This document shows, in pieces, positions 10,297 to 31,010 of a DNA stretch of 32,000 nt (within the stretch, counting starts at the first letter, position 1; every line of letters begins with the position of its first letter). The notes under the pieces were generated by a model that worked only from the letters and a program-made list of their open reading frames with translations, ran no database searches and was not told the DNA's origin. This DNA is from Planctomycetales bacterium (GTDB lineage: Bacteria > 4484-113 > JAFGCY01), in assembly GCA_022646745.1 (NCBI GenBank), contig CP060262.1, positions 3,960,001 through 3,992,000 on the forward strand, given 5' to 3'. A program made the position numbers and the translations under genes.

Positions 10297-10333
10297 CCGG
10301 CTGCGCTTGTCATTTTCTGGGCGCAGCCGGTTT
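10297..10333. terminator. GC-rich hairpin between the convergent bS22-like ORF and fliA
   Basis: CCGGCTGCGC, 14-nt loop, GCGCAGCCGG, followed by TTT on the plus strand. It abuts the fliA stop codon. Confidence 0.35.
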
Positions 10334-11075: not shown

Positions 11076-11079
11076 TTAT

Positions 11080-11442: not shown

Positions 11443-11469
11443 CTTCGGCGGCTCCCCGCCGCCTTCAAC

Positions 11470-11958: not shown

Positions 11959-12578
11959 TACAGATTGGCAACCCCCAGGGATTCCAGCAGCATCGTCAGT
12001 GAACCCGGTTCAGGGATGAACACGCACTGCCCGTCGATATGGTCGCCACCGACTTCAAAGTGGGTATCAACGATCATGATTTTTTCCGAAAGTTCATACA
12101 TGTTGCTGACCACGTAGCTCACGATGCTGCCGGCGAAGTCCTGCGCAACCGCAGGCACGGTGCTGTGCATCAGCAGGCTGGTCATGTCTGCCAGGCTGCG
12201 CAGGAAGCTGCTCGCGAGGATGTTGCCAAGCTCCTGCAGTGCGCTTCGTGCCATCTCGCTCTCGCCAATGGTCATGTCCGCGCTGGGGGCCATCTGGTTC
12301 AGCAGCATCTGGGCATCCGAGGTGCGGAAGATCATCACCAGGTGGCCGCGGATGTCCCCCACGACCTGCACGTAGGATGCGCAGACCTCCACCTCCTCTC
12401 CGCCCAGCAGCCGGCTGATCTCCACATCTGGAACCACCTTGACGAAGGGGACCGTAATGTCAACGCGGGTGTTGATCAGCTGGCTCAATGAGGTCGCGGC
12501 ATTGCCCATGCCGATGTTGCTGACCTCGCGGATCGTGTCCTTCTGCATGTCACTGAGGTCATATGCCGAGTTGCCCAT
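11958..12578 (-). CDS. cheC: CheY-P phosphatase CheC
   Basis: 206 aa. Both [D/S]xxxExxN-x22-P active-site motifs are present: DTIREVSN...x22...P and SALQELGN...x22...P. Confidence 0.88.
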   Translation of the reverse strand: MGNSAYDLSDMQKDTIREVSNIGMGNAATSLSQLINTRVDITVPFVKVVPDVEISRLLGGEEVEVCASYVQVVGDIRGHLVMIFRTSDAQMLLNQMAPSADMTIGESEMARSALQELGNILASSFLRSLADMTSLLMHSTVPAVAQDFAGSIVSYVVSNMYELSEKIMIVDTHFEVGGDHIDGQCVFIPEPGSLTMLLESLGVANL

Positions 12579-12581
12579 GTG

Positions 12582-13097
12582 CTATGCCCTGCCCTTCTCA
12601 GGATGTTCAGTGCCGAGCAGCCCTGCGAGGTTGAGCAGGGTGATCAGGCGGTTGTCAATCGTCACCGTGCCGCTGACCAGTCCGTCACTGCCGTTGCGGC
12701 CAAGCTTGGCCGCTGAATCGTCAATGTCCCTAGTGGAGATCTTGATCACGTCCGCCACCTGGTCAACAAGCAGACTTGCATCGTCTCCGTCACTGTCGAC
12801 CACCATCAGGGACTGGTTGTCATACTGGTCCTGGCCAACTTCGGGCATTCCCAGCCTTGTTCGCAGGTTGAACACCGGGATGATCCGGCCCCGCAGGTTG
12901 ATCACCCCGTCGATGCAGTCACTGGAATTCGGGACGCGCGTGAACTGCTTGATCGCGATGATCTCAGTCACGATGTTGGCAAACAGCCCGAATTCCTGGC
13001 CTCCCAGACGGCAGACAACGAGCAGCTCCTCGATGTCAACGGCCTGCAGCTCCGGGATCTCCGACTGTACCTGCACTGCTGTAGCTTCATTTTTCAT
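12582..13097 (-). CDS. cheW: Chemotaxis coupling protein CheW
   Basis: 171 aa. CheW-domain pattern GGQEFGLFANIVTEI...VPNSSDCIDGVINLRGRIIPVFNLRTRLG. ATGA overlap with cheB. Confidence 0.9.
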   Translation of the reverse strand: MKNEATAVQVQSEIPELQAVDIEELLVVCRLGGQEFGLFANIVTEIIAIKQFTRVPNSSDCIDGVINLRGRIIPVFNLRTRLGMPEVGQDQYDNQSLMVVDSDGDDASLLVDQVADVIKISTRDIDDSAAKLGRNGSDGLVSGTVTIDNRLITLLNLAGLLGTEHPEKGRA

Positions 13098-14155
13098 ATT
13101 GCATCCACCGCGTCCACAACTGCCTGTGGGAGTTCATTGATCGGGTATGCCGCATCCGCGATCCTGCTTTCGATGACACTGCGCGGCATGCCGTAGATCA
13201 ATGCCGTTTCCTTGCTTTCCGCCAGGATCCGGCAGCCGTTCTTCTTCAATGCATTGCAGCCCTCTGTGCCGTCCTTGCCCATTCCCGTCAGGACGACTCC
13301 GACGGCCCGCTTGCCAACGTTCTGGGCTAGTGTGCGAAATGTCAGGTCCGCACAGGGGCGCAACCCGCCAATCGCCGGGCTGTCATTGAGCACCGCGACG
13401 CCGTCCCTGTTGAATTCCAGGTGGCGCCCACCGGGGGCGATCAGGCACAGCCCAGGGGTCAGGCGGTCTCCTTCCTCGGCCTCCTTCACCTTGATGCTGC
13501 AGATCGAATTGAGCCTCTCGGCCAGCAGCGCCGTGAACTTGGCAGGCATGTGCTGCACGACAAGCATCGCTGCGCCGATGTCGGCCGGAATGCCCGGCAG
13601 GAACTGGGAAAGCGCCTTTGGTCCGCCTGTTGAGCTGGCAATCGCCACCAGCTTGCGTGCGGAATTGGTGCTGTATGAGGCTGTCGGGCGGTCAACCCGG
13701 TGATTGGCAGTCACCGCGCGCATCACCTTGCCCGGTGTTGGCACGCGGCTTGCCATCGCTCCGTCAAGCGTACGCATCAGCTGCGGGCCGACACTGGCGA
13801 AGTCAACGGAAATGGAACCGCCGGGCTTGCAGATGAAGTCAACCGCACCGTCCTCGAGTGCCTGGATGGTTTCCTGGGCACCTTCACTGGTGAGGCTGGA
13901 AACCATCACCACACGGGTTGGCTTCTGCTTCATGATCTCACGCAGGCAGGCCAGCCCGTCCATCTTGGGCATGTTGATGTCAAGCGTGACAAGGTCCACG
14001 GAACCGTTGCTCCGCTGCAATTTCTCCAGCGCTTCGATTCCATCGCGTGCGGTGTCAACCACTTCGTAACGACCGGAATCGCTGACGATCTCGGAGATCA
14101 CCTTACGCATGAATGCGCTGTCATCAACTATCAGAATGCCGTGCTTTCTGGACAT
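13094..14155 (-). CDS. cheB: Chemotaxis response regulator protein-glutamate methylesterase CheB
   Basis: ATG at 14155 (the track's TTG at 14170 is unlikely). Receiver domain ILIVDDS...LDINMPKMDG. Esterase domain ASTGGPKAL...VVQHMPAKFT...LTGMGKDG (Ser/His/Asp). Confidence 0.92.
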   Translation of the reverse strand: MSRKHGILIVDDSAFMRKVISEIVSDSGRYEVVDTARDGIEALEKLQRSNGSVDLVTLDINMPKMDGLACLREIMKQKPTRVVMVSSLTSEGAQETIQALEDGAVDFICKPGGSISVDFASVGPQLMRTLDGAMASRVPTPGKVMRAVTANHRVDRPTASYSTNSARKLVAIASSTGGPKALSQFLPGIPADIGAAMLVVQHMPAKFTALLAERLNSICSIKVKEAEEGDRLTPGLCLIAPGGRHLEFNRDGVAVLNDSPAIGGLRPCADLTFRTLAQNVGKRAVGVVLTGMGKDGTEGCNALKKNGCRILAESKETALIYGMPRSVIESRIADAAYPINELPQAVVDAVDAI

Positions 14156-14228
14156 ATCATTACAAACCAAAAACCTTCAATCAATGGTAACCCTGAATCG
14201 CTTTACTCAGGAATAAATCCCGGTTTCA

Positions 14229-15122
14229 TTACCTCGCGTCAGTCACCGCCATTCGTTTCACTGAATCCATCAGGCGACCGAAGAATCCGCGCCGCTCAGG
14301 TTCCGGCAGGACTGCCGACTGGCCATCTAGCACCTGTACCAGCGCGTTGATGGCCCGCGCGCAGCGTCCATGCGGGAACATTCCCAGCAGCGGTGCCTGG
14401 CGACGCGTGCACTCATACATCTGTTCGTCATATGGTATGCCTCCCAGCAGGTTGATCCCGCGTTCCTGGTAGCGCCTGGTCACACGGTCCAGTGAGGCGT
14501 GTGTGCGCTCCAGCTCACCTTCCGCTCGCAGCATGTTCACCACCAGGTGCAGGTTGCCACTGTACTGCCGCGCGCAGAGCATCTTGATCACACTGTAGGC
14601 ATCCAGCATGGCCGGGGGGTCCGGGGTGCAGACCAGCACACAGTCATCGGCCGGCAGGGCGAAGCGGGCGACGCCCTCCCCGATTCCGGCTGCGGTGTCA
14701 ATCACCATCACGTCGTAGCTGTCCTCCAGTTCCCTGAGCTGGCCAAGCATGCGCACAAGCGACAGGGAACCCATCGACGCCAGTTCCGGCACGCCTGCGC
14801 CGCCTGGCAGCAGATCAATCCCGTGTTGCGTATGCAGCAGGATGTCAGCCAGCCGGCAGCTACCCTTCGAGACGTCCTCAATGGTGCGCTGCGGCACCAC
14901 GCCGAGCATCAGGTCTAGGTTGGCAAGCCCGAGGTCCGCATCGAACAGCAGCACACGGCGACCGCCGGCCGCCAGTGCGATCGCCAGGTTCAGCGAGATG
15001 CTGGACTTGCCAACGCCGCCCTTGCCGCCGGTGACGGTCACAACCCGGCAGCGTCCACTGCCGAACACACTATGGCCGCGGTCCTGCGCCAAGCTGCGCA
15101 GCTGCTGTGCCTGGTCAATCAT
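14229..15122 (-). CDS. flhG: Flagellar number/placement regulator FlhG (MinD/ParA-type ATPase, YlxH)
   Basis: ATG at 15122 (the track's TTG is at 15131). N-terminal DQAQQLR (FlhF-activating DQAxxLR motif) and deviant Walker A GGKGGVGKSS. 8-nt overlap with the flhF stop. Confidence 0.88.
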   Translation of the reverse strand: MIDQAQQLRSLAQDRGHSVFGSGRCRVVTVTGGKGGVGKSSISLNLAIALAAGGRRVLLFDADLGLANLDLMLGVVPQRTIEDVSKGSCRLADILLHTQHGIDLLPGGAGVPELASMGSLSLVRMLGQLRELEDSYDVMVIDTAAGIGEGVARFALPADDCVLVCTPDPPAMLDAYSVIKMLCARQYSGNLHLVVNMLRAEGELERTHASLDRVTRRYQERGINLLGGIPYDEQMYECTRRQAPLLGMFPHGRCARAINALVQVLDGQSAVLPEPERRGFFGRLMDSVKRMAVTDAR

Positions 15123-16707
15123 TGACGACAATCCCCCTGTCCATCATCTCATTGATGCATTGCATGTCCGCGCTGCGGATGTCCTCCGGCACACTCTGGC
15201 CGGTTGTGAAATAGCTCAGCGGCAGGTCACAGATGCGGCCGATGTTGTGCAGGCCACCGAGGCCGACACATTCATCGAGCTTGCTGAGAACCAGCCTGCT
15301 GCAGCCGAGCCTGGCAAACCCGGCAATCGCACGGCGCGCATCGGCCGCCTGGGTACCGGCGGCCAGCACCAGGTGCACCTCATCCGGCTGGCTGGCCTGC
15401 AGCAGGCTGGCGGTTTCCTCTATGTGTTCACTGCAGCCCGGGCTGCGTCCGGCGGTGTCAACAAGCACCAGGTCGAAGTCCACCAGGCGATCGATCACTT
15501 CCGCAAACTCCTGCGGGCTGAACACCACCTCGAAGCGCAGGCCCATGATCTCCGCATAGCTGCGCAGCTGCTCGGCTGCCGCTATGCGATAGGTGTCAAG
15601 GCTGACAACCGCCACCTTCAGGCCCTGCTCAAACACGGCCTGGGCGGCGATCTTGGCAATCGTCGTCGTCTTGCCGACGCCGGTCGGCCCGACCAGTGCC
15701 ACTACCCGGCGCTGCCCGCTATTCAGGCGCAGGCCACCGCTGAGCAGCACCCCGCGGCAGATCTCACGGCGCACCGCCTGCAGCAGCTGCTGCGGGTCGG
15801 CGGCATTGTCAACCTGCCCGGTCGCAGCCTGCAGCAGTTCCAGTGCATCCGCCAGCGGGATGTTCCACTCGATCAGGGTGTCGAACACATCAGCCTGGCT
15901 GGCATCCAGCCCCATCCCGGCGTGCGGCCCCTGCGGCGGGGCCAGCACTGCGGCCTGCCTCTCCTGTTCCAGCCTGCGTTGCTCAAGTTCCTCGCGCTGC
16001 ACACTGAAGGTCCGTTCCAGTCGCTCAAGTTCGCTGCGGAACTGCTGCGGGATACCGCGGCTGGCAACAGCCTGCTCACGCAGCAGGCGGTCCTGTTCCT
16101 GCTGCCGGCCGGCAAGCTCAGTGATCATCCCGCGGATTTCATCCATCGCACTGTGCAGTTCGCCCAGGCCATGGCCCGGCTCTCCTGCCGCCTGGCTGAT
16201 CACCGGCTGGGCCACAGGATCCCTATGCGGCGTGGCATAGCGGTCCTGCTGCGGCCTTGCAGGCATCTCGGCAATCTCCTGCCGGTGGAAGGCGTCCCGC
16301 AGCCGGCTGATTGCATCGCCATTCGTGGTACGCCCAGCCGTTGGCACCGTGTATGTGGCTTCATCTACTGGAGTATGCCGGAGGATGGCATCACTGCCGG
16401 ATGCACCGTAGCCAGCCAGCAGCTCGCGGCGGATTTCCTCATCGGAAACCTGGCTGGACTCCTGCTGTGGCACAACTGGCTGCCGGGCAGCCGCCTGGCT
16501 GAGCACATCACCGCGCTGCTCCTCAAGGCTGAGCGTGGCGATGATCTCCACCATCTTCTGCCCGCCTATGCCGAGGATGCCGTTGCGGCGAAACTCGCGC
16601 GCCTCCAGCTGGGCCTCCGGCCCCATCTCGCGCTCGATCCGAGACAGCAGGCTGTCCAGGTTCTCGAGCTTCTCCTCATATCTCCTGATCCTAGTCGGCA
16701 TGTTCAT
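15115..16707 (-). CDS. flhF: Flagellar SRP-type GTPase FlhF
   Basis: 530 aa. G1 GPTGVGKTTT, G3 DTAGRS, G4-like SKLDE. The start may be the second ATG at 16701, which is better spaced from GAGGTG. Confidence 0.9.
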   Translation of the reverse strand: MNMPTRIRRYEEKLENLDSLLSRIEREMGPEAQLEAREFRRNGILGIGGQKMVEIIATLSLEEQRGDVLSQAAARQPVVPQQESSQVSDEEIRRELLAGYGASGSDAILRHTPVDEATYTVPTAGRTTNGDAISRLRDAFHRQEIAEMPARPQQDRYATPHRDPVAQPVISQAAGEPGHGLGELHSAMDEIRGMITELAGRQQEQDRLLREQAVASRGIPQQFRSELERLERTFSVQREELEQRRLEQERQAAVLAPPQGPHAGMGLDASQADVFDTLIEWNIPLADALELLQAATGQVDNAADPQQLLQAVRREICRGVLLSGGLRLNSGQRRVVALVGPTGVGKTTTIAKIAAQAVFEQGLKVAVVSLDTYRIAAAEQLRSYAEIMGLRFEVVFSPQEFAEVIDRLVDFDLVLVDTAGRSPGCSEHIEETASLLQASQPDEVHLVLAAGTQAADARRAIAGFARLGCSRLVLSKLDECVGLGGLHNIGRICDLPLSYFTTGQSVPEDIRSADMQCINEMMDRGIVVND

Positions 16708-16712
16708 TCACC

Positions 16713-18866
16713 TCAGGCCTGCTCCTCGGGGTTGGCAATGCTTGCGAAGGTGCGGATCTCCACGTCTCCCGCGATCTCGCCGTAGCTCAGCATCACCATG
16801 CCGCCGAACAGCTTGGCGAACACCTTGCGCAGGTAGGGCCGGATGCGCGGGCTGACGATGAACACCGGCACGTAGCCCTGGCTCTGCATGCGGTTGACCT
16901 GCTCGGTGGCGAGGTCGATCAGCTTGCGCAGGTAGGCCGGCGGCAGCACCGGGATGGTGCCGGTGGTCGTGTTCTGCAGCGAGTTGGCAACTTTCTCCTC
17001 AATGCGCGGGTCAAGTGTCAGCACCGTGATGCGGCCCTCCGCATCTGCATGCTCACTGGCGATCTGCCGGCCGAGCGCCACTCGGACGTACTCATTGAGC
17101 ACCTCCGGATCCTTGCTGACATTGCAGTGGTCCGAGAGCACCTCAAGGATCAGCGGCAGGTTGCGGATGCTGACGCCCTCGGCCAGCAGCAGCATCAGCA
17201 CGCGCTGGATCTCGCCGACGCCGAGCTTGTCAGGCACCAGCTCCTGCACCACGGTCGGGAACTTCTGCTTCGTGAGGTCGATCAGCTCCTGCACCGCCTG
17301 GCGGCTGAGCAGCTCGGCGCAGTTGCGGCGCACGAGCTCCGTCAGGTGTGTTGCCAGCACGGTGGCGCTGTCCACCACGGTGTAGCCGTCCGCCTCGGCG
17401 ATCGCACGTTCATCCGGGTTGATCCAGTAGGCATCGAGACCGAAGGCCGGCTCCTGCACCTTCACACCGCTGAGCTCCGGGCCTTCGCCCGTCGGGCTCA
17501 TCGCCAGGTAGCGGTCGAGCATCAGCTCACCATGGCCGACGGTGTTGGCGCGGATCTTGACGTTGTACTCACCGGGCCTGAGCGTGATGTTGTCACGGAT
17601 GCGCATCGGCGGCACGATGAAGCCGAGGGCGATCGCGGTCTGCTTGCGGATGCCGTTCACGCGCTCCAGCAGGTCGCCGCCCTGTTCGCTGTCAACGAGC
17701 GGAATCAGGCCGTAGCCGATCTCCAGCTCCAGCAGGTCCACGGTCAGCAGCTGCTCGAGGTTGTGGCGGGCCTGCTCCTCCTCCGTCATCGGTTCAGGCT
17801 GGGATTGTCCGCCTTCGCCATCAGCCTTCGGACTGCCATCCGGGGCAGTGCCACCGGCGGCATCCTGCTCCTCAGTACGCTTTGCAACAATTGCGATTGC
17901 GAACAGTGAGCCCGCCGCCAGCGCCATCAGCACCTTCGGCATGCCCGGCACCATCATCAGCACCAGGATGAAGCCACCGCTGATCATCAGCGGCTTGCTC
18001 TGGTTCGTGAGCTGCGTGATCATCGAGAGACCGACCGTCTCGTCGCTGGCGGCCTTGGTGACCATGATGCCGGTGGCAGTGGAGATCAGCAGCGCCGGGA
18101 TGTTGGCGACGAGGCCGTCACCAACCGTGAGCGAGGTGAAGGTGCTGAGCGCCTCGGCGGCACCCATGTGCATCTGCAGCATGCCGATCACGAAGCCGGC
18201 GCCGATGTTGACGATGATCAGGATGATGCCGGCCATCGCATCGCGCTGCACGAACTTCGAGGCACCGTCCATCGCCCCGAAGTACTCCGTTTCGCGCTCC
18301 AGCTTGCGGCGGCGCGAGCGGGCCTGCTCCTCGTTGATCACCCCGGCGTTGAGGTCTGCGTCTATCGAGATCTGCTTGCCCGGCAATGCATCGAGGGTGA
18401 AACGGGCCGCCACCTCACCGATGCGCTGGGCACCGTGCGTGACGACGACGAAGTTGATGATCACGATGATAAGGAAGATCACCAGGCCGACAACCTCGTT
18501 GCCACCTGTGACATATGTCGCGAAGGTGTTGATCACGTGGCCGGCCTCGGCGTTCGAAAGGATCGAGCGCGTGGTGGCAACGTTGAGGAACAGGCGGAAG
18601 ATCGTGGTGAACAGGATCACCGCCGGGAAGATCGAGAAGTCCAGCGGGGTGTTGACATACATCGTGTTCAGCAGGATCACCACGCCGCTGATCAGGGAGA
18701 GGATCACGAACACGTCGAGCAGGCCGGATGGGATGCGCACGACCAGCAGCAGCACCGCTGCGAGGATCGCGAAGGGGACGAGCGCCTCCATCTGTGACTT
18801 CTTCGGTGCCTGCAGCCTGCCCAGCAAGCTGGCCAGCCCGGCACCGGCACTGCTCTGTGCCGACAT
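16713..18866 (-). CDS. flhA: Flagellar type III export apparatus protein FlhA
   Basis: 717 aa. N-terminal polytopic FHIPEP-type domain (FPAVILFTTIFRLFLNVATTR...), a linker, and a large cytoplasmic domain. Followed by flhF-flhG. Confidence 0.96.
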   Translation of the reverse strand: MSAQSSAGAGLASLLGRLQAPKKSQMEALVPFAILAAVLLLVVRIPSGLLDVFVILSLISGVVILLNTMYVNTPLDFSIFPAVILFTTIFRLFLNVATTRSILSNAEAGHVINTFATYVTGGNEVVGLVIFLIIVIINFVVVTHGAQRIGEVAARFTLDALPGKQISIDADLNAGVINEEQARSRRRKLERETEYFGAMDGASKFVQRDAMAGIILIIVNIGAGFVIGMLQMHMGAAEALSTFTSLTVGDGLVANIPALLISTATGIMVTKAASDETVGLSMITQLTNQSKPLMISGGFILVLMMVPGMPKVLMALAAGSLFAIAIVAKRTEEQDAAGGTAPDGSPKADGEGGQSQPEPMTEEEQARHNLEQLLTVDLLELEIGYGLIPLVDSEQGGDLLERVNGIRKQTAIALGFIVPPMRIRDNITLRPGEYNVKIRANTVGHGELMLDRYLAMSPTGEGPELSGVKVQEPAFGLDAYWINPDERAIAEADGYTVVDSATVLATHLTELVRRNCAELLSRQAVQELIDLTKQKFPTVVQELVPDKLGVGEIQRVLMLLLAEGVSIRNLPLILEVLSDHCNVSKDPEVLNEYVRVALGRQIASEHADAEGRITVLTLDPRIEEKVANSLQNTTTGTIPVLPPAYLRKLIDLATEQVNRMQSQGYVPVFIVSPRIRPYLRKVFAKLFGGMVMLSYGEIAGDVEIRTFASIANPEEQA

Positions 18867-19073: not shown

Positions 19074-19790
19074 TCAGTCGCAGCGGAAGCGCACGACGGT
19101 CCAGGGGCTGTCCTCGGACCAGGCGCTGCCATCGTAGCCACCGAAGAACTCCGGCTGCACGCCCTCGGGCAGCAGTTCCTCGATGCGCCGGCGGTTGAGC
19201 ATCAGCAGGCTGCGGCTGCGGCGGTGGAACTTGCCATCGAGCTTCATCTCGGTGGTCTCCTGCAGCGGGCGCGTGGTGGACTCGGTCAGCTTCCAGCTGC
19301 GCCGCATCGACGGCGTGGGCTGGTCCTCCAGTTTGGAGACCCCGGCGGAGACCGACTTCACAAGGTGGTTGACATTGAAGAAGTCCACCACGACATAACC
19401 GCCGGGCCAGGCCAGGTCGCGCAGCTGCAGGATCACGCTGGCGACGTCCTCATCGCTGTCCAGTTCCGGCAGGCGGTTGCCGCAGCAGCAGGCCAGCGCC
19501 AGCGGGCTGCGTACGAGGTCGAACACCTCGAGCATCTCGCCCTGGATCAGGTGGTGCCCCAGCAGCGGGAAGCGCTCGCGTGCCAGCCGGATCAGCCCGG
19601 GGTCAAGCTCCACGCCGTTCGCCTCATAGCCCTCGCCCAGCAGGCGGGCCACGGTCGATCCGTCCTGGCAGCACAGCTCGAGCATCGCCGCGGGCGGCTT
19701 GGGCAGGCAGGCGCGCAGGAACTCATAGCGCTGCTCATCGAAGCGATCGCAGAACACGGGCTGTGACTGGGGGCTGTCCATCGCCGCCAT
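19074..19790 (-). CDS. Class I SAM-dependent methyltransferase-like protein with an atypical motif I
   Basis: 238 aa. MLELCCQDGSTVARLL...GYEANGVELD has motif I / post-I geometry, but the usual GxGxG is replaced by CCQDG. Divergent from the pilin-like array. Confidence 0.55.
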   Translation of the reverse strand: MAAMDSPQSQPVFCDRFDEQRYEFLRACLPKPPAAMLELCCQDGSTVARLLGEGYEANGVELDPGLIRLARERFPLLGHHLIQGEMLEVFDLVRSPLALACCCGNRLPELDSDEDVASVILQLRDLAWPGGYVVVDFFNVNHLVKSVSAGVSKLEDQPTPSMRRSWKLTESTTRPLQETTEMKLDGKFHRRSRSLLMLNRRRIEELLPEGVQPEFFGGYDGSAWSEDSPWTVVRFRCD

Positions 19791-19884
19791 TATATCGGGC
19801 AGCCGGCGGAGAGCGCTTTTCGATCAGCGGTAACATTTGCGCCTGCAGCTTCATCCTGTAACTGGAGCCAGCTAAGGAGTTCCG

Positions 19885-20919
19885 ATGATTTATGCGAGAG
19901 GCAGCGCCGGGGGGCGCTGGCTGATGGGATTGACCACGCTTGCCGTGGTGCTGGCACTGGCCGGATCAATGCGGCTCGTGCCTGACCTGCGCTCAAGGGC
20001 GCGGGAAGCTGAGACGAAACAGAACCTGCATGCGATCCAGCTTGCGCTGGAACGGTATGAGGTCGACTTTGTAACTGGGACCTATCCACTTTGGTTGAGC
20101 GGCGGAGTTGTTTCAGGCGCGCTCAGCGAAGCAGGATCAAGCCGGCTGAAGCTTGATCCCCTGCTTGATGACGGTTACTTCACTAAGTATCCACCAAATC
20201 CGTTCACTGTCCAGGACAGCAGGCAGCGCGAACTGATTGCGCTGGCCCAGTCACTGACCAATGATCAACTCAGTCCGGAGAGCAGTTCCGCAGAAGTAGC
20301 TCCAGCGTACCGCTTTGGCAGCGAACATGACCTGATGGGCAATGTATTGGCCAACTTCCGCATGGCGCAGAAGTTCTGTGGCACCGATGCAGACGGGCAT
20401 GCAGTACTGAGTCCAACAGGTGCTGACACCTTCTACTTCAGTGTGAATCAGCCAACGCAATCTCCCAGCCGCCGGATGCTGCAGGGCCAGTTCGGTTACT
20501 TCCCGATCGATTACCACGAGGTGATCGAAGTCAGTGTCACTCCGGACAGCGGATACTACCTGCCGCTCGGGTACTCCCTCATCTGCTGGGGAAGTGCTCG
20601 CAACAAAGGGAAGGACACCCTGAGTAATGCTTCGCTGCAATACTGCACAGATGCCAATGGAGCGGCAATGCTTGCCTGGCAGCGAATGGAATCTCCTCTG
20701 GCAGCCGACGAGGAATTCGACGCCCTGGCAGCAGTTGCCAGTAACGTCGATCTTATGGAACTGATTTACATACCGGCGGAGAATGCCTGGGATGGCATCC
20801 CGGATGGCGTGTTGATTTCACTTGGCAATGGAACACATTGCGGTATCCAGTCCGAATACCGTCAATCAAGGTCCTTGGAGTCAGCGCCAGAACAAATGGG
20901 AAATAGCAATGGCAGCTAA
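19885..20919 (+). CDS. Large GspG-like pilin-domain paralog 1 (degenerate prepilin signal; most diverged member)
   Basis: 344 aa. AAGGAG lies 5 nt before the ATG. N-terminus GGRWLMGLTTLAVVLALAG, then EAETKQNLHAIQLALERYEVD..YPLWLSGG, DPLLDDGY..YPPNPF, YRFGSEHDLMGNVLA, GSARNKGKD. Confidence 0.7.
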   Translation: MIYARGSAGGRWLMGLTTLAVVLALAGSMRLVPDLRSRAREAETKQNLHAIQLALERYEVDFVTGTYPLWLSGGVVSGALSEAGSSRLKLDPLLDDGYFTKYPPNPFTVQDSRQRELIALAQSLTNDQLSPESSSAEVAPAYRFGSEHDLMGNVLANFRMAQKFCGTDADGHAVLSPTGADTFYFSVNQPTQSPSRRMLQGQFGYFPIDYHEVIEVSVTPDSGYYLPLGYSLICWGSARNKGKDTLSNASLQYCTDANGAAMLAWQRMESPLAADEEFDALAAVASNVDLMELIYIPAENAWDGIPDGVLISLGNGTHCGIQSEYRQSRSLESAPEQMGNSNGS

Positions 20920-21907
20920 GGGCAGCAACACAGGCCGCTGGCTGATGGGCGTGCTAAGCGTGGTAATCGTTGCTGCGCTGATCCTCGTGGCAGTTCCGAA
21001 CATGATCAGGGTCACGGATTGCAACAATCGCGAAGCCGAAACCAAGCAGAACCTGCATGCAATCCAGCTTGCCATTGAGAGGTACGCGGTTGACCACGGT
21101 GGAACTTACCCACTCTGGCTGAGCGGTGGGTTGGAGGTGTCCTATTCCGGATCTGGTCCTGATTTTGACTACATTGCAGACAAGCTGATGGTTGAAGGCT
21201 ATATGCCAGACTACCCCTCCAACCCTTTTATAAAGTCCACGGAGTCACGAGCAAACAAGGATCTCTTTAAACTGCAGAAGGATCTGGATGACCCATTGTC
21301 TTATGGAAGCTCCGCGTGGATACAGAATATGCGTTTTGGTGCAACAGGAAAGGTCGCGATGGGTAATGTGCTGGCTGATCCCCGCTTCGCCCAAATGCCA
21401 TATATTGATGCCAAAGGCAATCAAGGGATTGCAGGCACAGGGACGGACGTGATCTTTCGCTGCTGGGACACGCAGCAATTGCAGGAGCCGCAGTACTGGC
21501 TGCAGGGCCAGTTCTTCTACAAGTCCGATGCCGGTCATTATTCCGAAAACGACGACATCTCAGTGCTGGACTTCAGCGGGGATGTGGCTGACAACTACAT
21601 CCTGGGATGCTTTGGCTCCTTCAGGAGCAAGGGCAAGGACATCCTTGGTGAGGAACACTCTGCGCCATGGTGGGTTGAAACTGGCAGAAGCGCACAGGTC
21701 TGGGGATTCCACGGAATCCCCGTGCCTGGCAACCCACTGCGCCAGGGCAGCCCATTCGGCAGCAGCAATGGCACACCACCCAGCCCATTCCAGTATGGCA
21801 ACCCGAATGGAGTACGGGATGGAATACTTCTGGTCCTGACAAGGGGTGAAGGCTATGACTCTGAGTCCATTGAAACAGAAAAGGCTGATGGGGGTGAAGT
21901 TCAATGA
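20909..21907 (+). CDS. Large GspG-like pilin-domain paralog 2 (degenerate prepilin signal)
   Basis: ATG at 20909 (332 aa) overlaps the paralog 1 stop by 11 nt. KGSNTGRWLMGVLSVVIVAALILVAVPN, EAETKQNLHAIQLAIERYAVDHGGTYPLWLSGG, PQYWLQGQFFYK, GSFRSKGKDILG, YGNPNGVRDGILLVLT. Confidence 0.72.
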   Translation: MAAKGSNTGRWLMGVLSVVIVAALILVAVPNMIRVTDCNNREAETKQNLHAIQLAIERYAVDHGGTYPLWLSGGLEVSYSGSGPDFDYIADKLMVEGYMPDYPSNPFIKSTESRANKDLFKLQKDLDDPLSYGSSAWIQNMRFGATGKVAMGNVLADPRFAQMPYIDAKGNQGIAGTGTDVIFRCWDTQQLQEPQYWLQGQFFYKSDAGHYSENDDISVLDFSGDVADNYILGCFGSFRSKGKDILGEEHSAPWWVETGRSAQVWGFHGIPVPGNPLRQGSPFGSSNGTPPSPFQYGNPNGVRDGILLVLTRGEGYDSESIETEKADGGEVQ

Positions 21908-22935
21908 CAGCTAAGGGACACGGTATCAGGCGCAGCGTCATGGGATGTGTGGCCATCCCGCTGCTGATCATCATTGCTGCTGTTCTCATCGAAAATCCAT
22001 TCAGGATCAAGCCCGGCAAGGGACACCGCGAAGCCGAAGCCCAGCAGAACCTGCATGCGATCCAGCTGGCACTGGAGCGCTATGCTGTGGACTACGGTGG
22101 AGTGTACCCACTCTGGCTGAGCGGCGGAGGAATTGCAGACCCGGCTGCCGGAGAAATCGATCCGCATTTCGCAATGGACCCCCTGATGGCTGAAGGCTAC
22201 ATGCCGCAATACCCGCGCAATCCTTTCAACCGGCTTGGCACCGGGGATACGAATGATAATCTTCGGGCGATGCAGGTCAGGCTCAGCGACCCACTCAGGC
22301 CAGGCTCTGGCAGCAGCATGGAACCACCCGTATACCGCTTCGGCAGGGACTACACCCTGATGGGCAATGTGCTGGCGGATCCGCGCTTCGCCGAAGTGAT
22401 TGTGGGCACGGACAGCAATGGCAACGCCGTCCGGAAGCGGACCGGCTCGGATGTTATCTACCGCTGCTGGGACATCGAAGAACTTGACGAGCCGCAGTAC
22501 TGGCTTCAGGGGCAGTTCTTCTACAAGGTCCCTTCAGGCAGGACTTCATTTGTGAATGACATTTCCCAGTTTTCCTTCAAGACCGATGTAAGTGGAGATT
22601 ACATCCTCGGCACCTACGGTTCATATCGCAATAAGGGCAAGGACATTCTTGGGGATGAGTTGCCATGGCAAGTTATTCATAATGGCAATGCCACAGCACG
22701 ATTGCTCTGGTCCTTCAATGGCATAGAGATGCCTGGAAAAAGCTACAGGCAGGGCAGCCCATACAACTGGCCAGTCGCTGGAGACTACTCCGGCTTCCCG
22801 ATTTGCTATGGAAATCCAAATGGGCAGCGAGACGGCTTGATTCTCGTATTAACCGCTGAGAATCCTGCAGACATGCAATTCGACTATCCAGATCCCCAGG
22901 ACATCAATCAGAAATCTGAATATTCATGGGATTAG
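21904..22935 (+). CDS. Large GspG-like pilin-domain paralog 3 (degenerate prepilin signal)
   Basis: 343 aa. ATGA overlap with paralog 2. GIRRSVMGCVAIPLLIIIAAVL, EAEAQQNLHAIQLALERYAVDYGGVYPLWLSGG, YRFGRDYTLMGNVLADPRFAEVIVGTD, YRCWD, PQYWLQGQFFYK, YGNPNGQRDGLILVLT. Confidence 0.72.
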   Translation: MTAKGHGIRRSVMGCVAIPLLIIIAAVLIENPFRIKPGKGHREAEAQQNLHAIQLALERYAVDYGGVYPLWLSGGGIADPAAGEIDPHFAMDPLMAEGYMPQYPRNPFNRLGTGDTNDNLRAMQVRLSDPLRPGSGSSMEPPVYRFGRDYTLMGNVLADPRFAEVIVGTDSNGNAVRKRTGSDVIYRCWDIEELDEPQYWLQGQFFYKVPSGRTSFVNDISQFSFKTDVSGDYILGTYGSYRNKGKDILGDELPWQVIHNGNATARLLWSFNGIEMPGKSYRQGSPYNWPVAGDYSGFPICYGNPNGQRDGLILVLTAENPADMQFDYPDPQDINQKSEYSWD

Positions 22936-22951
22936 GAAGGTTCTGACAATT

Positions 22952-24013
22952 ATGACTAACAAGGGCAGTAACACAGGTCGGTGGCTGATGGGGGTGATCT
23001 CCGTCGCTGTGGTGGCGGGGATCATCCTGATCGCGGTTCCGATGGTGTTTGGCAACCACCGCCATCCACAGTACCAGGAAACCGAGGTCAAGCAGAATCT
23101 GCATTCGATCCAGCTGGCAATTGAGCGCTATGCGGTGGACAGCGAGGGCAGGTATCCGCAGTGGATCAGCGGCGGCAGTCATGCTCCGGGCAGCCTCGGC
23201 GGACCGGATGCCGCGTACACTGCCGATGTACTGATCATGGAAAGCTACATGCCGAGTTGCCCCGCCAACCCCTTTGCCAGAACTGGACAGGCCAGGAATG
23301 AAACCCGCCGGGCCGTGCGCGAGATGCAGGAACTGCTGAATGACCCGCTGCAGCCAGTCGAAGGGGGCGACCTGTCCGCCCCGGCCTACCGCTTCGGAAA
23401 GGATTACGAGTTGATGGGCAATGTGCTGGCGGATCCGCGCTTCGCCGAAGTGATAGTGGGCACGGACAGCGATGGCAACGCCATCCGGAAGCGGACCGGC
23501 ACGGATGTAATCTACCGCTGCTGGGACACCGAGGCTTTGGACAAACCGCAGTACTGGCTGCAGGGCCAGTTCATGTACAAATCCTTCGGACCGCTGATTG
23601 CAGCAGGCGATGCAGGTGCTGAACCGGACTTTGGCAAACTGCACGCGGACATGTACATGCTCGCCGGCTACGGCAGTGTGCGCACGAAGGGCCAGGATGT
23701 GCTGGGTCCGGAGCAGCAGCTCAGGCCGGAGAGCGGGGCTCAGTCGCAGCTGAGGCTGCTCAATTACACGGGCCTGAGCATCCCGGGCTTCTCCGGGCGG
23801 CAGGCCAGCCCCTTCAGCTTCGGCGGTACGGATGCGGAGCAGCCGCTTGTCAGTTTCGGCAACCCCAATGGAATTACCGACGGACTGATCATGGTGCTGA
23901 CGGCCGGACAGCAGCAGTCGATGGCCCTGCAGGAACGAGAAGCGGATGTGCTTGCAGTGCCGGATGGTGATGTGCTGGAGGAAGGCGCAGAAGCTCAGGG
24001 AGACAATGAGTAA
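22952..24013 (+). CDS. Large GspG-like pilin-domain paralog 4 (degenerate prepilin signal)
   Basis: 353 aa. KGSNTGRWLMGVISVAVVAGIILIAVP, ETEVKQNLHSIQLAIERYAVDSEGRYPQWISGG, YRFGKDYELMGNVLADPRFAEVIVGTD, PQYWLQGQFMYK, GSVRTKGQDVLG, FGNPNGITDGLIMVLT. Confidence 0.72.
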   Translation: MTNKGSNTGRWLMGVISVAVVAGIILIAVPMVFGNHRHPQYQETEVKQNLHSIQLAIERYAVDSEGRYPQWISGGSHAPGSLGGPDAAYTADVLIMESYMPSCPANPFARTGQARNETRRAVREMQELLNDPLQPVEGGDLSAPAYRFGKDYELMGNVLADPRFAEVIVGTDSDGNAIRKRTGTDVIYRCWDTEALDKPQYWLQGQFMYKSFGPLIAAGDAGAEPDFGKLHADMYMLAGYGSVRTKGQDVLGPEQQLRPESGAQSQLRLLNYTGLSIPGFSGRQASPFSFGGTDAEQPLVSFGNPNGITDGLIMVLTAGQQQSMALQEREADVLAVPDGDVLEEGAEAQGDNE

Positions 24014-24120
24014 GAAATCTGGCAACTGCTGACATGGCAGCGATGCGGGTCTGGTTCATATCTCCTGGCTTTGCTGCGGGATGAATGCCCGCAGACCGGC
24101 GAGCTGAATGCTCGCGCTCC

Positions 24121-24168
24121 ATACTGTTTACGGATTACGCTTCACTGTTTACTGTTCATGGTTCACTG
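24121..24168 (+). repeat. About 2.3 imperfect 21-bp phased direct repeats (core ACTGTTTAC / TTCACTG)
   Basis: ACTGTTTAC at 24123-24131 and 24144-24152; TTCACTG at 24141-24147 and 24162-24168. ACTG recurs at exact 21-nt intervals in a locally AT-richer stretch. Confidence 0.5.
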
Positions 24169-24172
24169 ATCC

Positions 24173-24192
24173 CGGCGACAGGAGTGTCGCCG
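24173..24192 (+). terminator. Perfect 8-bp hairpin downstream of paralog 4 (possible terminator or attenuator)
   Basis: CGGCGACA-GGAG-TGTCGCCG followed by a pyrimidine-rich tract. There is no clean U-run. Confidence 0.3.
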
Positions 24193-24195
24193 CTA

Positions 24196-24254
24196 CTTCC
24201 CTCACTTCCCTCACTTCCTCCACTTCTTCGACTTCTTTCACATTTCACTTCCCA
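24196..24254 (+). repeat. Tandem 9-nt repeat array CTTCNNTCA (5 full units plus 2 degenerate)
   Basis: CTTCCCTCA CTTCCCTCA CTTCCTCCA CTTCTTCGA CTTCTTTCA CATTTCA CTTCCCA, head to tail. Confidence 0.6.
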
Positions 24255-24487
24255 GTTGGGAACAAACTCCACGGCGCATGGTCTGACAATCTGCTAAGGG
24301 ACATAATTACCGGTCGGCGCACTGCAAAGGAGGTGGGTCGAACCGCAGGAGCCTTGCGGCTCCAAAGCAACTGGTGGGATAGAGCCGGACGGGTGGCTGG
24401 CAGCAGACCATTATTGCCATTCTTTCCATTCATTCATTCCGACACTGGCAGTACACCGCATACCGCTCATTCCCACACCCGGACAAC

Positions 24488-24537
24488 GGAGGTCAGGCTG
24501 TCAGCCTGGCAGGAGCCAAGTCAACGACTTGGCCTCC
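24488..24537 (+). repeat. 50-nt double-hairpin extragenic element, copy 2
   Basis: GGAGG-TCAGGCT-GTC-AGCCTGG-CAGGA-GCCAAGTC-AAC-GACTTGGC-CTCC. Relative to copy 1, the C-G pair in hairpin 2 has become T-A (a compensatory change). Confidence 0.7.
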
Positions 24538-24689
24538 AGCAACGGAGCCGCGAAGCAAAGCTTCGCAGGCTTTGGTCGAATCCACTCAGCTGCGCCACGC
24601 ATGCGCGTGACTCCGCAACGTGGCTCCCTGCTCCGGGCAACTCCATGCGCGCCAATCAGCGCGCCCAGTACTGTCAACACTGATGCATC

Positions 24690-25838
24690 ATGGAATACTC
24701 TGCAAACACCAACAAGCGTCGCGGCTTCACCCTGATCGAGCTGCTGGTTGTGATCGTGATCATCGGCATCCTCGCCGCGATCGCGCTGCCGAACTACATC
24801 AAGGTCAAGGACAAGGCCAAGGAAGCCGAGGTCAAGGCCAACCTGCACAACATCCAGCTTTCCGTCGAGCGCTGGGCCGTTGACAGTGAAGGCCCCTACC
24901 CGAACTACCTGATCGGCGGCGAGCCGAAGTACGCCGCCCAGGTGATCGAGTCCGCCTCCGCCAGTGCCTTCAACCAGGTGACCGAGATCGACCCGACCGA
25001 GCGCGCCAGCGACCCGCTGCTGCGCCGGGGCTACGTTGATGCCTACCCGAAGAACCCCTTCACCACCAACGGCGTCGCCATCCACCGCGTGCAGGAGACC
25101 CTGCCGACGAGTGCAGTGAACTCCAGCGACCCGCTGCGCAACGGCCAGGGCAACCCCGGTGAGGACTACGGCACGCGCTTTGGCCCCTACTGCACCAGCA
25201 TGGGCTCAGTGCTTGCCGACCCGCGCTATACGCAGTGGATCTACTTCAACCTGGACAACGGCACGCGCAACGTGGAGAACACGTATGCCAACATCGAGTA
25301 CGACTTCTGGGACATGTGGCAGGGCAACAAGCCCTTCCCATACCTGCCCGGCATGTTCTTCTACAAGAGCAGCGGCCCGATCATCGCGGCGGGGAACGAT
25401 GATGCCTCGACGGCACCGATCATCCCGACCCAGAGCGACCAGTACATGCTGGGCGGCTATGGCAGCATCCGTACCAAGGGCAAGGACGTGCTTGGCGAGG
25501 AGGAGCAGGTCATTTACTTCCAGCGCGCCGCAGCCGGTTCCAGCAACTGGCTGGCCGATGCAGATCAGCCTGGACAGCCCTCCACCGGGCCGATGGCGGG
25601 CCCGCCTCCGAATGACGGCGATATCGGCAGCGGAGGCGGCACCGGCAAGGTCGAACTGCGCATCTGGCCCTGGACCCGCAGCCAGAGCGGCGACCCGGAT
25701 GCCCGCAGCGGCAGCCCGTACTCAGTCGGCGATGTGGGGGACAACAACGACCAGCTGCAGTACGGCAATCCGAACGCGATCCGCGATGCGGTGATCCTGG
25801 TGCTTACTGCCGGAGAGGACTACGACGGCGACCGCTAA
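24690..25838 (+). CDS. Large GspG-like prepilin with a canonical class III signal (paralog 5)
   Basis: 382 aa. MEYSANTNKRRG|FTLIELLVVIVIIGILAAIALPNY is the prepilin cleavage/methylation motif with Glu5. Then EAEVKANLHNIQLSVERWAVDSEGPYP, DPLLRRGYVDAYPKNPF, GSIRTKGKDVLG, YGNPNAIRDAVILVLT. Double stop TAATAG. Confidence 0.82.
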   Translation: MEYSANTNKRRGFTLIELLVVIVIIGILAAIALPNYIKVKDKAKEAEVKANLHNIQLSVERWAVDSEGPYPNYLIGGEPKYAAQVIESASASAFNQVTEIDPTERASDPLLRRGYVDAYPKNPFTTNGVAIHRVQETLPTSAVNSSDPLRNGQGNPGEDYGTRFGPYCTSMGSVLADPRYTQWIYFNLDNGTRNVENTYANIEYDFWDMWQGNKPFPYLPGMFFYKSSGPIIAAGNDDASTAPIIPTQSDQYMLGGYGSIRTKGKDVLGEEEQVIYFQRAAAGSSNWLADADQPGQPSTGPMAGPPPNDGDIGSGGGTGKVELRIWPWTRSQSGDPDARSGSPYSVGDVGDNNDQLQYGNPNAIRDAVILVLTAGEDYDGDR

Positions 25839-26131
25839 TAGCGATTCCGGCTGGAATTATGGGGGAGACTCCGGCATTGCGCCGTGAGTCAGAGGGGGCG
25901 CGGCCTGGCGGACGGGTCGCGCCCCTGCCATACAAGCAAAAACCCGCCCAGGCCGGACGGGTGTTTGAGGTAGGGGTTCAATATGAAATGCTACCGTGGC
26001 GTTTTGTACCGGAAGTAAAAGCCAGGTTGAATCCCCGTGAAACGAATTTATCTGCTGTTTCACAATATAATATACCGGCCTTCGTGGTATGAACCCCGAC
26101 TGACGGAATGCAGCCGGAAACCGGCTGGCCC

Positions 26132-26160
26132 TTGCAATTGGGGCCCCTTCGGTATATAAT
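26132..26160 (+). promoter_or_regulatory. Near-consensus sigma70 promoter
   Basis: TTGCAA (26132-26137), 17-nt spacer, TATAAT (26155-26160). The GGGAG SD and the ATG at 26190 follow. Confidence 0.6.
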
Positions 26161-26189
26161 CTCCGGTTCAATCCCCAGGGAGTGAAATT

Positions 26190-26501
26190 ATGGCGACTAC
26201 CAAGAAGACCACGACACGCAGAACGACCGCAGCCAGCAAGAAGACTGAAGGCGAATTCCCGGTGTATGACCCCGGTGCCGGCGCTGACGCATACAAGAAG
26301 GGCGACATCGTCTTCTTCGAGAAGGTGCGCAACTGGCTGGACAAGGGCGCCTTCGTCTCCGCCCACGGCAAGGTGACGAGCGTCGGCAAGTTCGACGGTG
26401 AAGTGCCCTACATCGAAGTCAGCTTCGACCAGGCAAAGAGCAAGAACGACGTGGACCTCGGCAAGGACAAGCGCAAGTTCCTGCTCGAAGTGAAGGGCTG
26501 A
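26190..26501 (+). CDS. Small protein of unknown function (basic T/K-rich N-terminus plus an ~80-aa domain)
   Basis: 103 aa with a strong promoter, an SD and an intrinsic terminator. GC3-rich codons. No family recognised. Confidence 0.65.
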   Translation: MATTKKTTTRRTTAASKKTEGEFPVYDPGAGADAYKKGDIVFFEKVRNWLDKGAFVSAHGKVTSVGKFDGEVPYIEVSFDQAKSKNDVDLGKDKRKFLLEVKG

Positions 26502-30068: not shown

Positions 30069-31010
30069 TCAGTTGGCAAGCAGGCTGCCGGACTTGGCAG
30101 CCGTATAGGCGAAGATCAGCCAGTCCGCGAACACATGCACGATGAAAGCCGGCCACAGGCTGCGCCGGCGCCATGTCCAGGCCCCAAGCAGCACGCCCCA
30201 GCCGCCGGCGAGCACGAGGCCCATGATCCCCTGCGGGGTGCCGTACCAGTGGATCAGCCCGAACACGAGACCCTGCAGCAGCACCTGGTGGCGGGCCCGC
30301 ATCAGGGTGCGCAGTGATCCGAGCAGCACGCCACGGAACCACAGTTCCTCCTGCAGCGCGTTGACAACGGCGAACAGCGCACCGGCAACCAGGAACTTCG
30401 AACGTCCCATTTCGGCGGATATGCCGAATGGCGACCATTGGCCGTGGTTCTCACCGAAGTAGTACTGGTAGCCATACAGCCCGCCGAAGGTCAGCGCGAG
30501 GAAGCCGACAGTGATCAGGATGTCAACCGGCAGGAAGCGGAACTTCAGGTTGAAGTGGAAGCGCACCCGGGTGATGCGGCGTGAATACAGCAACACCGCC
30601 ACCACGCCGATCAGTTCAAGCGCGTAGTAGATGTAGTCCGGATGAACGGGAATGCCCGCCAGGTCCAGCAGGCTGGGAGTGCCCCATGCCTTGTTGCCAA
30701 TAATCAGCGCATAGATTAGGCGCACAAGCCCGAAGTGCACCAGCATGAAGATCGCCAGCAGCTTCAGGTGCCCGGCCGGTTCGAGATCAGACAGTGCGGT
30801 CGGGATGAACTGCCCGTCGCGCTGTGTCAGGTATTCACGACGGCTGTAGACCACCGCGGCAAGCAGGATCACCAGCATTGCCAAGTACTGCAGCGGGTGC
30901 ATCCGCCAGAAGAATTCCTGCATGGCCGCCATGCAGGGCAGCATGGCAATCACCAGCCCGTAGAGGGGCGCAAGCCGTGCATCTGGGGAGCCGGGGACAG
31001 ACACAGTCAC
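30069..31010 (-). CDS. CPBP family (CAAX/Abi-type) intramembrane glutamic endopeptidase
   Basis: 313 aa, polytopic. Motifs QEELWFRG (EExxxR), FGLIHW (FxxxH) and HVFADW (HxxxD/N). GTG start at 31010 is uncertain. Confidence 0.8.
   Translation of the reverse strand: MTVSVPGSPDARLAPLYGLVIAMLPCMAAMQEFFWRMHPLQYLAMLVILLAAVVYSRREYLTQRDGQFIPTALSDLEPAGHLKLLAIFMLVHFGLVRLIYALIIGNKAWGTPSLLDLAGIPVHPDYIYYALELIGVVAVLLYSRRITRVRFHFNLKFRFLPVDILITVGFLALTFGGLYGYQYYFGENHGQWSPFGISAEMGRSKFLVAGALFAVVNALQEELWFRGVLLGSLRTLMRARHQVLLQGLVFGLIHWYGTPQGIMGLVLAGGWGVLLGAWTWRRRSLWPAFIVHVFADWLIFAYTAAKSGSLLAN

Follow-up and report, generated by a model that had tools for sequence, protein, structure and literature searches.

Apparent remodelling of the class III signal in tandem pilin-like paralogs of a Planctomycetales genome

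As the hallmark that defines the subunits of type IV filaments, the class III signal combines Gly(-1), Phe1 and Glu5, and nearly all pilin search tools rely on it. A looser definition asks for a leader whose last residue is Gly or Ala and, after it, 20-25 hydrophobic residues; Glu5 is present "often, but not always" (PMC10191384). Here we describe an array of five tandem paralogous genes, P1 to P5, named in plus-strand order and occupying positions 19885-25838 (open reading frames and their translations) of a 32-kb stretch of DNA, hereafter the window, from a Planctomycetales bacterium (contig CP060262.1, positions 3,960,001 to 3,992,000). Among the five proteins only P5 carries the canonical class III signal; P1, P2 and P4 have G-RWLMG in its place, and P3 has R-RSVMG. 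Comparison of sequences across genomes indicates that this is a real and selected remodelling of the signal within an undescribed family of pilin-like proteins. As to its consequence, we hypothesize, tentatively and with the reservations weighed below, that P1-P4 are membrane-retained, nonpolymerizing pilin-like proteins. The genes are as follows (a slash marks the presumed point of cleavage).

19885..20919, plus strand: P1, noncanonical pilin-like paralog, 344 amino acids, N-terminus MIYARGSAGG-RWLMG, motif codons 19912-19929

20909..21907, plus strand: P2, noncanonical paralog, 332 amino acids, N-terminus MAAKGSNTG-RWLMG, motif codons 20933-20950

21904..22935, plus strand: P3, noncanonical paralog, 343 amino acids, N-terminus MTAKGHGIR-RSVMG, motif codons 21928-21945

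22952..24013, plus strand: P4, noncanonical paralog, 353 amino acids, N-terminus MTNKGSNTG-RWLMG, motif codons 22976-22993

24690..25838, plus strand: P5, canonical prepilin-type paralog, 382 amino acids, N-terminus MEYSANTNKRRG/FTLIELLVVIVIIGILAAIALPNY with the junction KRRG/FTLIE, GFTLIE at 24723-24740

The five proteins are homologous end to end (27-36% identity to P1), and the invariant positions that they have in common include EAExKxNLHxIQL, YP, GG, NPF, RFG, LQGQF and KGxD. P5 matches the Pfam family N_methyl (PF07963, 2e-10) and TIGR02532 (1e-9); P1-P4 match neither at E<=1, nor any Pfam family at E<=0.01, nor any NCBIfam family. P5 follows the rule that position +1 is hydrophobic, usually Phe or Met, and position +5 is Glu; P1-P4, with Arg at +1, break it. 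A neutral tail of 9-10 amino acids ending in Gly is found in P1, P2 and P4, and P3 has Arg in the Gly column. The N-termini quoted in an initial annotation, made from the sequence of the window alone, are identical to the open reading frame translations, and its claim that only the last gene is canonical holds, P5 lying outside the interval 19885-23050 to which that claim was attached.

Two details of the annotation need amending. It had assigned G-RWLMG to four of the five genes, which is right for P1, P2 and P4; P3 had been paired as KGHG-IRR, which is not the best alignment, and it fits P2 and P4 without gaps as R-R-S-V-M-G against G-R-W-L-M-G, so that in the window the Gly itself is lost from P3. 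The P3 orthologue in the related locus L008 reads G-R-R-V-M-G, with the Gly kept. The annotation had also placed Gly at +5, and this depends on the alignment: in an alignment of 97 family sequences the motif Gly lines up with Gly(-1), one residue is missing between it and the Met, and the Met occupies the Glu5 column; counting back from the conserved Pro likewise sets the Met at position 5. Glu5 thus appears, on alignment, to have been replaced by Met, which is uncharged and unbranched, rather than by Gly; in either alignment both Phe1 and Glu5 are gone.

Array members were collected from related genomes by a whole-protein profile and not by the motif, yielding 28 noncanonical genes in nine syntenic loci; the relatives are labelled UBP7, and the closest in the species-representative collection are UBP7 HKST-UBA01, UBP7 HKST-UBA03 and AC1.30. 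Across these genes the motif Met is present in 27/28, the preceding Gly in 26/28 and Arg or Lys in 25/28 (Lys in one gene of L065), and two genes have Cys. The exceptions are P3 of the window, with Arg for Gly, and gene 4 of L008, which reads G-C-I-I-G-C and lacks both Arg and Met. Variants include GGRWLMG, TGRWLMG, AGRWVMG, AGRWIMG, PGRNIMA, LGRTLMS, IGRIVMA, VGKIIMS and IGCALMA, giving the consensus G-[RK]-x-[LIVM]-M-[GAST], which is under tighter constraint than the remainder of the helix, in which the hydrophobic residues that come next are free to vary. When 1.84 billion representatives clustered at 50% identity were searched with a profile, further proteins with GGRWLM or TGRWLM were added (P0122, P0133 and P0141), and the motif is also kept in representatives less than 50% identical. 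On this sequence evidence we regard the motif as a true subfamily signature that recurs by common descent and not by chance; the question raised by the annotation, whether homologues from other genomes keep G-RWLMG, is answered by a consensus found in 26-27 of the 28 array genes, and the random, nonconserved N-termini expected of decay are not what is seen.

The motif also appears to be translated from the annotated starts. An AAGGAG Shine-Dalgarno sequence lies 6 nucleotides upstream of the P1 ATG, the P3 ATG overlaps the P2 stop codon as ATGA, consistent with translational coupling of P3 to P2, and independent gene calls on four metagenome contigs with an identical locus give the same starts (344, 332, 343, 353 and 382 amino acids). 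In ten P2/P4-type genes from four genomes, T-G-R-W-L-M undergoes no amino acid change while its codons vary synonymously: three are used for Thr, two for Gly, four for Arg (CGC, CGG, CGT and AGG) and three for Leu. Since the codons vary synonymously only, the motif segment must be translated and kept by selection on the protein, not by identity of the DNA. These observations bear on the proposal that P1-P4 are decaying duplicates or silent cassettes, or that the N-terminal segment is an artefact and the true start is the motif Met. In favour of that proposal, the Met is an invariant ATG at which two database models (P0007 and P0010) begin, and L008 holds a truncated remnant, MAAKGRNTGRWLMGVKFNDR followed by a stop codon; however, the open reading frames are full length in nine loci with a ratio of nonsynonymous to synonymous substitution rates (dN/dS) of 0.2-0.4, changes in the codons before the Met are all synonymous, the Shine-Dalgarno sequence and the coupling place the starts upstream, and, when read in their contigs, P0007 and P0134 have N-termini with G-R-N-I-M and G-R-W-I-M. 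We therefore consider it most improbable, and take the starts of P1-P4 to be right as read from the sequence. Silent cassettes of the pilS kind are separately ruled out by the starts and membrane helices that P1-P4 have of their own, by purifying selection on them and by their identity to P5 of only 27-35%.

Selection on the array is uneven. In best orthologue pairs dN/dS is 0.20-0.40 for P1-P4 and 0.08-0.24 for P5. P1 has orthologues of 90%, 52% and 52% identity (dN/dS 0.28-0.39), those of P4 are 59-91% identical (0.20-0.40), and P5 keeps 88-98% amino acid identity across genomes. The L006 and L008 counterparts of P1 show about 52% identity to it, compared with 88% for P5 in both loci; the DNA of the flanking flhA gene in L006 is also 88% identical. 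By these comparisons P1-P4 appear to be under purifying selection and not decaying, yet they diverge much faster than P5. The annotation's argument for selection rather than decay is thus borne out by the dN/dS values and by retention of the motif across genomes; its own basis, conservation in three paralogs of one genome, is weak alone, because the paralogs exchange N-terminal modules and heads and the three RWLMG copies are not independent, and it is the cross-genome counts that carry the argument.

Evidence of such exchange is found within the array. The head of P3 in the window is 90% identical to that of L006 gene 2, while the first 32 amino acids are only 28% identical. The N-terminus of P2 is identical to that of L005 gene 2 (P0001), whose head is nearer to that of P3 (78% vs 55%), and this gene therefore appears to combine a P2-type N-terminus with a P3-type head, a chimera that is a sign of unequal recombination. 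A further sign is the position of the truncated P2-type remnant MAAKGRNTGRWLMGVKFNDR in L008 (11046-11110), directly before a P3-type gene. Arrays hold 2-5 noncanonical genes, and that of HKST-UBA01 includes an extra paralog with canonical GFTLIE (P0013). The start of P2 overlaps the end of P1 by 11 nucleotides, and a 676-bp gap (24014-24689) separates P4 from P5. We infer as the best explanation that P1-P4 form an operon transcribed separately from P5, in an array that recombines and varies in copy number. P3 is identical to P0002, from a metagenome-assembled genome labelled "Planctomycetales bacterium", and P4 to P0005 (H7A35_16040); in some NCBI records P3 and related proteins are entered as "type II secretion system protein".

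In architecture P1-P4 remain pilin-like. An AlphaFold2 model of P2 built with 97 homologues (predicted local distance difference test score, pLDDT, 87.7; predicted template modelling score, pTM, 0.84) has a single helix at residues 7-62 (56 residues) and a beta-rich head, so that the hydrophobic alpha1N is continuous with a long helix packed on a globular head. A Foldseek comparison of this model with the PDB returned nothing below E = 1, and the family profile matched PDB sequences only over alpha1 (Geobacter PilA at 6e-10, other PilA proteins, and GspG at 4e-4). The model thus suggests a pilin "lollipop" with a pilin-type alpha1 and a head of about 280 amino acids that matches nothing in Pfam or the PDB. 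In each of P1-P4 an N-terminal flank of 10-11 residues with net charge +2 or +3 precedes 18-26 uncharged residues, and by simple rules (a positively charged N-flank, one hydrophobic span of 18 residues or more and no signal peptidase site that is conserved) all four are predicted to be bitopic, with the N-terminus inside and the C-terminus outside.

If the segment were instead an ordinary Sec signal peptide cut by signal peptidase I, P1-P4 would be soluble periplasmic or secreted proteins. By inspection a possible site, ALA/G, follows a 15-residue hydrophobic core in P1, and another, VFG/N, follows a Pro in P4. These sites are not conserved, though: ALA is missing in the P1 orthologues P0028 and P0068, and P2 and P3 have no small-x-small site. 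Furthermore, 18-26 uncharged residues are long for a cleavable signal, and the helix runs unbroken into EAExKxNLHxIQL, the conserved segment packed against the head. We regard this explanation as very unlikely, and the lack of a conserved signal peptidase I site as a point for retention in the membrane.

The remodelling can be placed within a wider family, of which 154 proteins were found from the P2 query and 975 representatives (50% clustering) with the clade profile at E<=1e-3. A 97-sequence sample was divided into 43 canonical members, with near-invariant GFTLIELLVVIVIIGILAAIALPNY, and 54 noncanonical members, the latter comprising 15 of the G-R-x-h-M type (h, hydrophobic), 5 extended by a zinc ribbon and 34 that are otherwise noncanonical; 131 new representatives from the profile search were classified additionally. 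The zinc-ribbon forms carry CxxC...CxxC in 50-140 amino acids N-terminal to the helix, and the 5 in the sample plus 7 among the new representatives are P0023, P0032, P0046, P0050, P0077, P0124, P0126-P0128, P0147, P0151 and P0218. From their sequences they look like anchored proteins with a cytoplasmic module, and are hard to see as anything else. They have a Pro-rich linker, and several of their helices open with Gly, then Cys or Arg and hydrophobic residues (G-C-I-V-G, G-R-I-V-G-C, G-L-I-I-G-C). A lipoprotein reading of the G-C variants is ruled out, as the Cys lies before the hydrophobic core and not after it. Some clades keep Glu5 and lose Gly(-1) (KRAARLLEV, MKKYALALEI), and other genomes hold mixed arrays of canonical, degenerate and noncanonical paralogs with no machinery close by. 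As several clades and forms show, the class III signal seems to have been lost, and the helix kept, repeatedly in the family.

On these grounds we propose that P1-P4 arose as duplicated, diverged copies of a large P5-type pilin-like protein, in which the class III signal would have been remodelled into a neutral tail of 9-10 amino acids followed by Gly, Arg or Lys, any residue, a hydrophobic residue, Met, a small residue and about 16 more hydrophobic residues. Insertion would proceed via the signal recognition particle and Sec, with a cytoplasmic N-terminus and a periplasmic head as the outcome. With Glu5 changed to Met, and with a basic residue, mostly followed by Trp, at the cytoplasmic face of the helix, the proteins would be poorly extracted from the membrane and would not homopolymerize; they would therefore persist, with the short tail perhaps trimmed at the Gly, as bitopic inner-membrane proteins displaying a P5-like head, their most plausible role being that of membrane-proximal partners of a fibre or pseudopilus built from P5. 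Glu5 mutants of pilins fail to homopolymerize (PMC4471445), so P1-P4 probably could not build a fibre alone. The basic residue is conserved as a charge, which fits a positive-inside role, and in several genes it is the sole positive charge on the cytoplasmic side (MIEFSGSAGG-R, MTNETGTTTG-R). At least one intact, selected gene does without the Gly, namely P3 of the window, with Arg at that position and dN/dS of 0.29-0.39. Retention in the membrane is thus favoured because the basic residue, the Trp and the loss of Glu5 would hinder extraction, because all copies lack Glu5, because P3 lacks the Gly, and because the family includes forms that look anchored. A literature search on uncleaved or anchored pilins returned nothing specific.

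Several observations weigh against membrane retention, and most of them would suit an alternative that we hold to be quite possible, namely that P1-P4 are still class III substrates, cut after the Gly to leave Arg or Lys at +1, and serve as low-copy Glu5-less minor or tip subunits (caps or primers) of a P5 fibre, perhaps as exchangeable heads made by recombination in the array. The Gly is kept in 26/28 genes through synonymous codon changes, which a plain anchor leaves unexplained and recognition by a prepilin peptidase would explain, the Gly being critical for prepilin processing and Glu5 dispensable (PMC4471445). The leader, of 9-10 residues, hydrophilic or neutral and ending in Gly, fits the class III signal as loosely defined, with Glu5 not always present (PMC10191384). 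Glu5 mutants, although unable to homopolymerize, co-assemble with wild-type subunits (PMC4471445), and known tip complexes are capped by a Glu5-less subunit (PMC10191384). Several variable paralogs with a single conserved canonical gene after them make up an order reminiscent of minor-pilin operons, and the canonical P0013 lies within the array of HKST-UBA01. The heads diverge fast (about 50% amino acid identity where P5 has 88%) and recombine, a pattern commoner for exposed subunits, while P5 is conserved. Finally, a generic anchor gives no reason for the Met to be invariant, and this invariance hints at specific recognition. The annotation had offered both alternatives, uncleaved signal-anchored proteins or nonpolymerizing tip or priming partners of P5, and the sequence comparisons agree with that pair.

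Against processing and assembly as minor pilins stands, first, the number of such genes, as all 2-5 noncanonical genes of each array (28 in total) are without Glu5, where in known tip complexes a single subunit is of this kind. With a basic residue at +1 beside the free amine, two uncompensated positive charges would end up in the hydrophobic core of the fibre, and extraction would be harder. P3 of the window lacks the Gly and gene 4 of L008 lacks the Arg and Met, and both genes are intact. P1-P4 share the head fold of P5, unlike the sets formed by GspH/I/J/K or PilV/W/X, and have no T2SSK domain. Moreover, neither the 32-kb window nor the related loci, out to 10 kb, encode type IV filament machinery or a prepilin peptidase. 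Besides membrane retention and processing as minor pilins we envisage a more specific, and unlikely, scenario, in which G-[RK]-x-hydrophobic-M-small is a new N-terminal signal read by a prepilin peptidase or by a dedicated partner (for example, the methyltransferase-like protein encoded next to P1); its products would be Arg-starting, Glu5-less, exchangeable caps or anchors of the P5 fibre, with the recombining array supplying interchangeable heads.

Comparison with known systems places P1-P4 near several groups and inside none. With type IV pilins and the pseudopilins of type II secretion systems (PF07963, TIGR02532) they share a short tail, an alpha1N of about 20 residues, a Pro near position 22 and an alpha1 that packs on a beta-rich head, and P5 is a full member by its N-terminus; P1-P4 differ in lacking Phe1, Glu5 and any match to these models, and in having a basic residue after the Gly and Met in the Glu5 column. 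No full-length match to GspG (TIGR01710, cut-off 88.85 bits) was obtained: P5 reaches 48.9 bits, confined to residues 11-72, and P2 13.8 bits; a partial match of P5 to the PilA N-terminus also falls below the cut-off. GspK and the PilK/PilX-type cap minor pilins resemble P1-P4 in having lost Glu5 near a canonical subunit and in not being expected to homopolymerize. However, known systems have one such subunit whereas the arrays hold 2-5, and GspK keeps a hydrophobic +1 and has its own T2SSK domain, which P1-P4 lack; the neighbours in the array are all paralogs of the canonical subunit with a single head fold, and GspH/I/J-type partners are missing. The GspK-type comparison made in the annotation therefore stands as an analogy only.

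The nearest functional analogy for P1-P4 may be with a pair of archaellum proteins, ArlF and ArlG (FlaF/FlaG), which we take to be components of the machine that have the archaellin fold and an uncleaved N-terminal membrane helix. Like P1-P4, these would be paralogs of filament subunits that have lost the cleavage motif, kept the hydrophobic helix and become membrane-anchored accessory parts; unlike them, they are archaeal and presumably single-copy, and as no sequence kinship is expected the likeness is one of function alone. A different resemblance is to the large prepilin-like families of the Planctomycetes-Verrucomicrobia-Chlamydiae group and related phyla (for example, DUF1559/HX9DG and the Verru_Chthon cassette), which likewise have many paralogs, near-identical GFTLIELLVVI, large heads of unassigned function and no nearby machinery, and of which the C-terminal "...NPNG.RDG.I.VL" strand of the P1-P5 family is reminiscent. 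The heads of P1-P5, though, match neither DUF1559 nor any other Pfam family, and among the Verru_Chthon cassette families of NCBIfam only P5 gives a match, below threshold and over the N-terminal helix only (D, TIGR02596, E 3.4e-4, 20.8 bits vs a cut-off of 70; C, TIGR02599, E 0.24).

Whichever reading is right, the family, with its 975 representatives, a head that matches neither Pfam nor the PDB and about half of the examined members without a canonical signal, would be missed by motif-based pilin finders, and one of its clades has exchanged the signal for another motif under purifying selection, beside a canonical paralog. If P1-P4 are retained in the membrane, a filament subunit would have been turned into an anchored periplasmic module. 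If they are cleaved, the substrate range of prepilin peptidases would be widened to a basic +1 and no Glu5, and the array would be a natural case of several Glu5-less subunits with one major subunit.

The surroundings of the array are themselves conserved. The order in the longer related contigs, of which the shorter ones show parts, is FlhA, a gene of 238 amino acids, 2-5 intact noncanonical paralogs, a gap of 0.4-1 kb, the canonical pilin of 382-385 amino acids, and then a gene of 103 amino acids followed by genes for a histidine phosphatase, Lnt, a patatin and an Rce1-like protease. The neighbouring features in the window are these.

19074..19790, minus strand: methyltransferase-like gene, 238 amino acids, divergent from P1 at a distance of 94 bp

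24014..24689, plus strand: P4-P5 gap, 676 bp, with a hairpin repeat and a conserved noncoding core at 24246-24470

30069-31010, minus strand: Rce1-like (CPBP) intramembrane protease

10332-18866, minus strand: flagellar/chemotaxis block upstream of the array

The methyltransferase-like protein has only a weak match to Methyltransf_25 (E 1.2e-3) and only 8 homologues among 5.8 billion proteins. Its gene adjoins the first noncanonical gene in nine loci, including L063 and L066, which lack the FlhA flank, and the protein is more conserved (69-87% amino acid identity) than the pilin paralogs. Motif I is degenerate in this protein (ELCCQDGS), and a segment rich in Cys reads ALACCCGN; an AlphaFold2 model built with the 8 sequences has a pLDDT of 67, and below 50 over the half presumed to bind S-adenosylmethionine. 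It may be a cytoplasmic partner acting on the N-terminal tails of the paralogs.

Within the P4-P5 gap, the core at 24246-24470 is 95-96% identical to L006 and L008, where the DNA of FlhA and P5 is 87-88% identical, and it includes a AAAGGAGGTG stretch and short hairpins. An Rfam scan of the whole window gave no match, in this core or elsewhere, and a scan of 19700-26300 for sigma-70 promoters and terminators gave background levels. Possible roles for the core are those of promoter, leader or small RNA of the canonical pilin gene. Directly downstream of the last noncanonical gene lies a tandem repeat of about 60 nucleotides with the hairpin GGCGACAGGAGTGTCGCC, present in one copy in the window (approximately 24150-24200), two in L006 (13321-13396) and four in L008 (15364-15576). 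Two candidates in the gap were rejected: a sigma-54 promoter (GG-N10-GC) sought by eye, because the two TGGCA sites are wrongly spaced, and an open reading frame of 191 amino acids called by metagenome gene finders (24108-24683, plus strand), which is probably no gene, as it matches no family, is of low complexity and overlaps the repeats and the core.

The Rce1-like protease lies four genes downstream of P5 in the window, L005, L006 and L062, a conservation of position that may reflect overall synteny alone. On the other side of the array, the flagellar/chemotaxis block comprises a FliA-like sigma factor (assigned by Pfam) and, by synteny with L005, CheD, CheC, CheW, CheB, a ParA/FlhG-like ATPase, an SRP54/FlhF-like GTPase and FlhA; its adjacency to the array is lost in L063 and L066.

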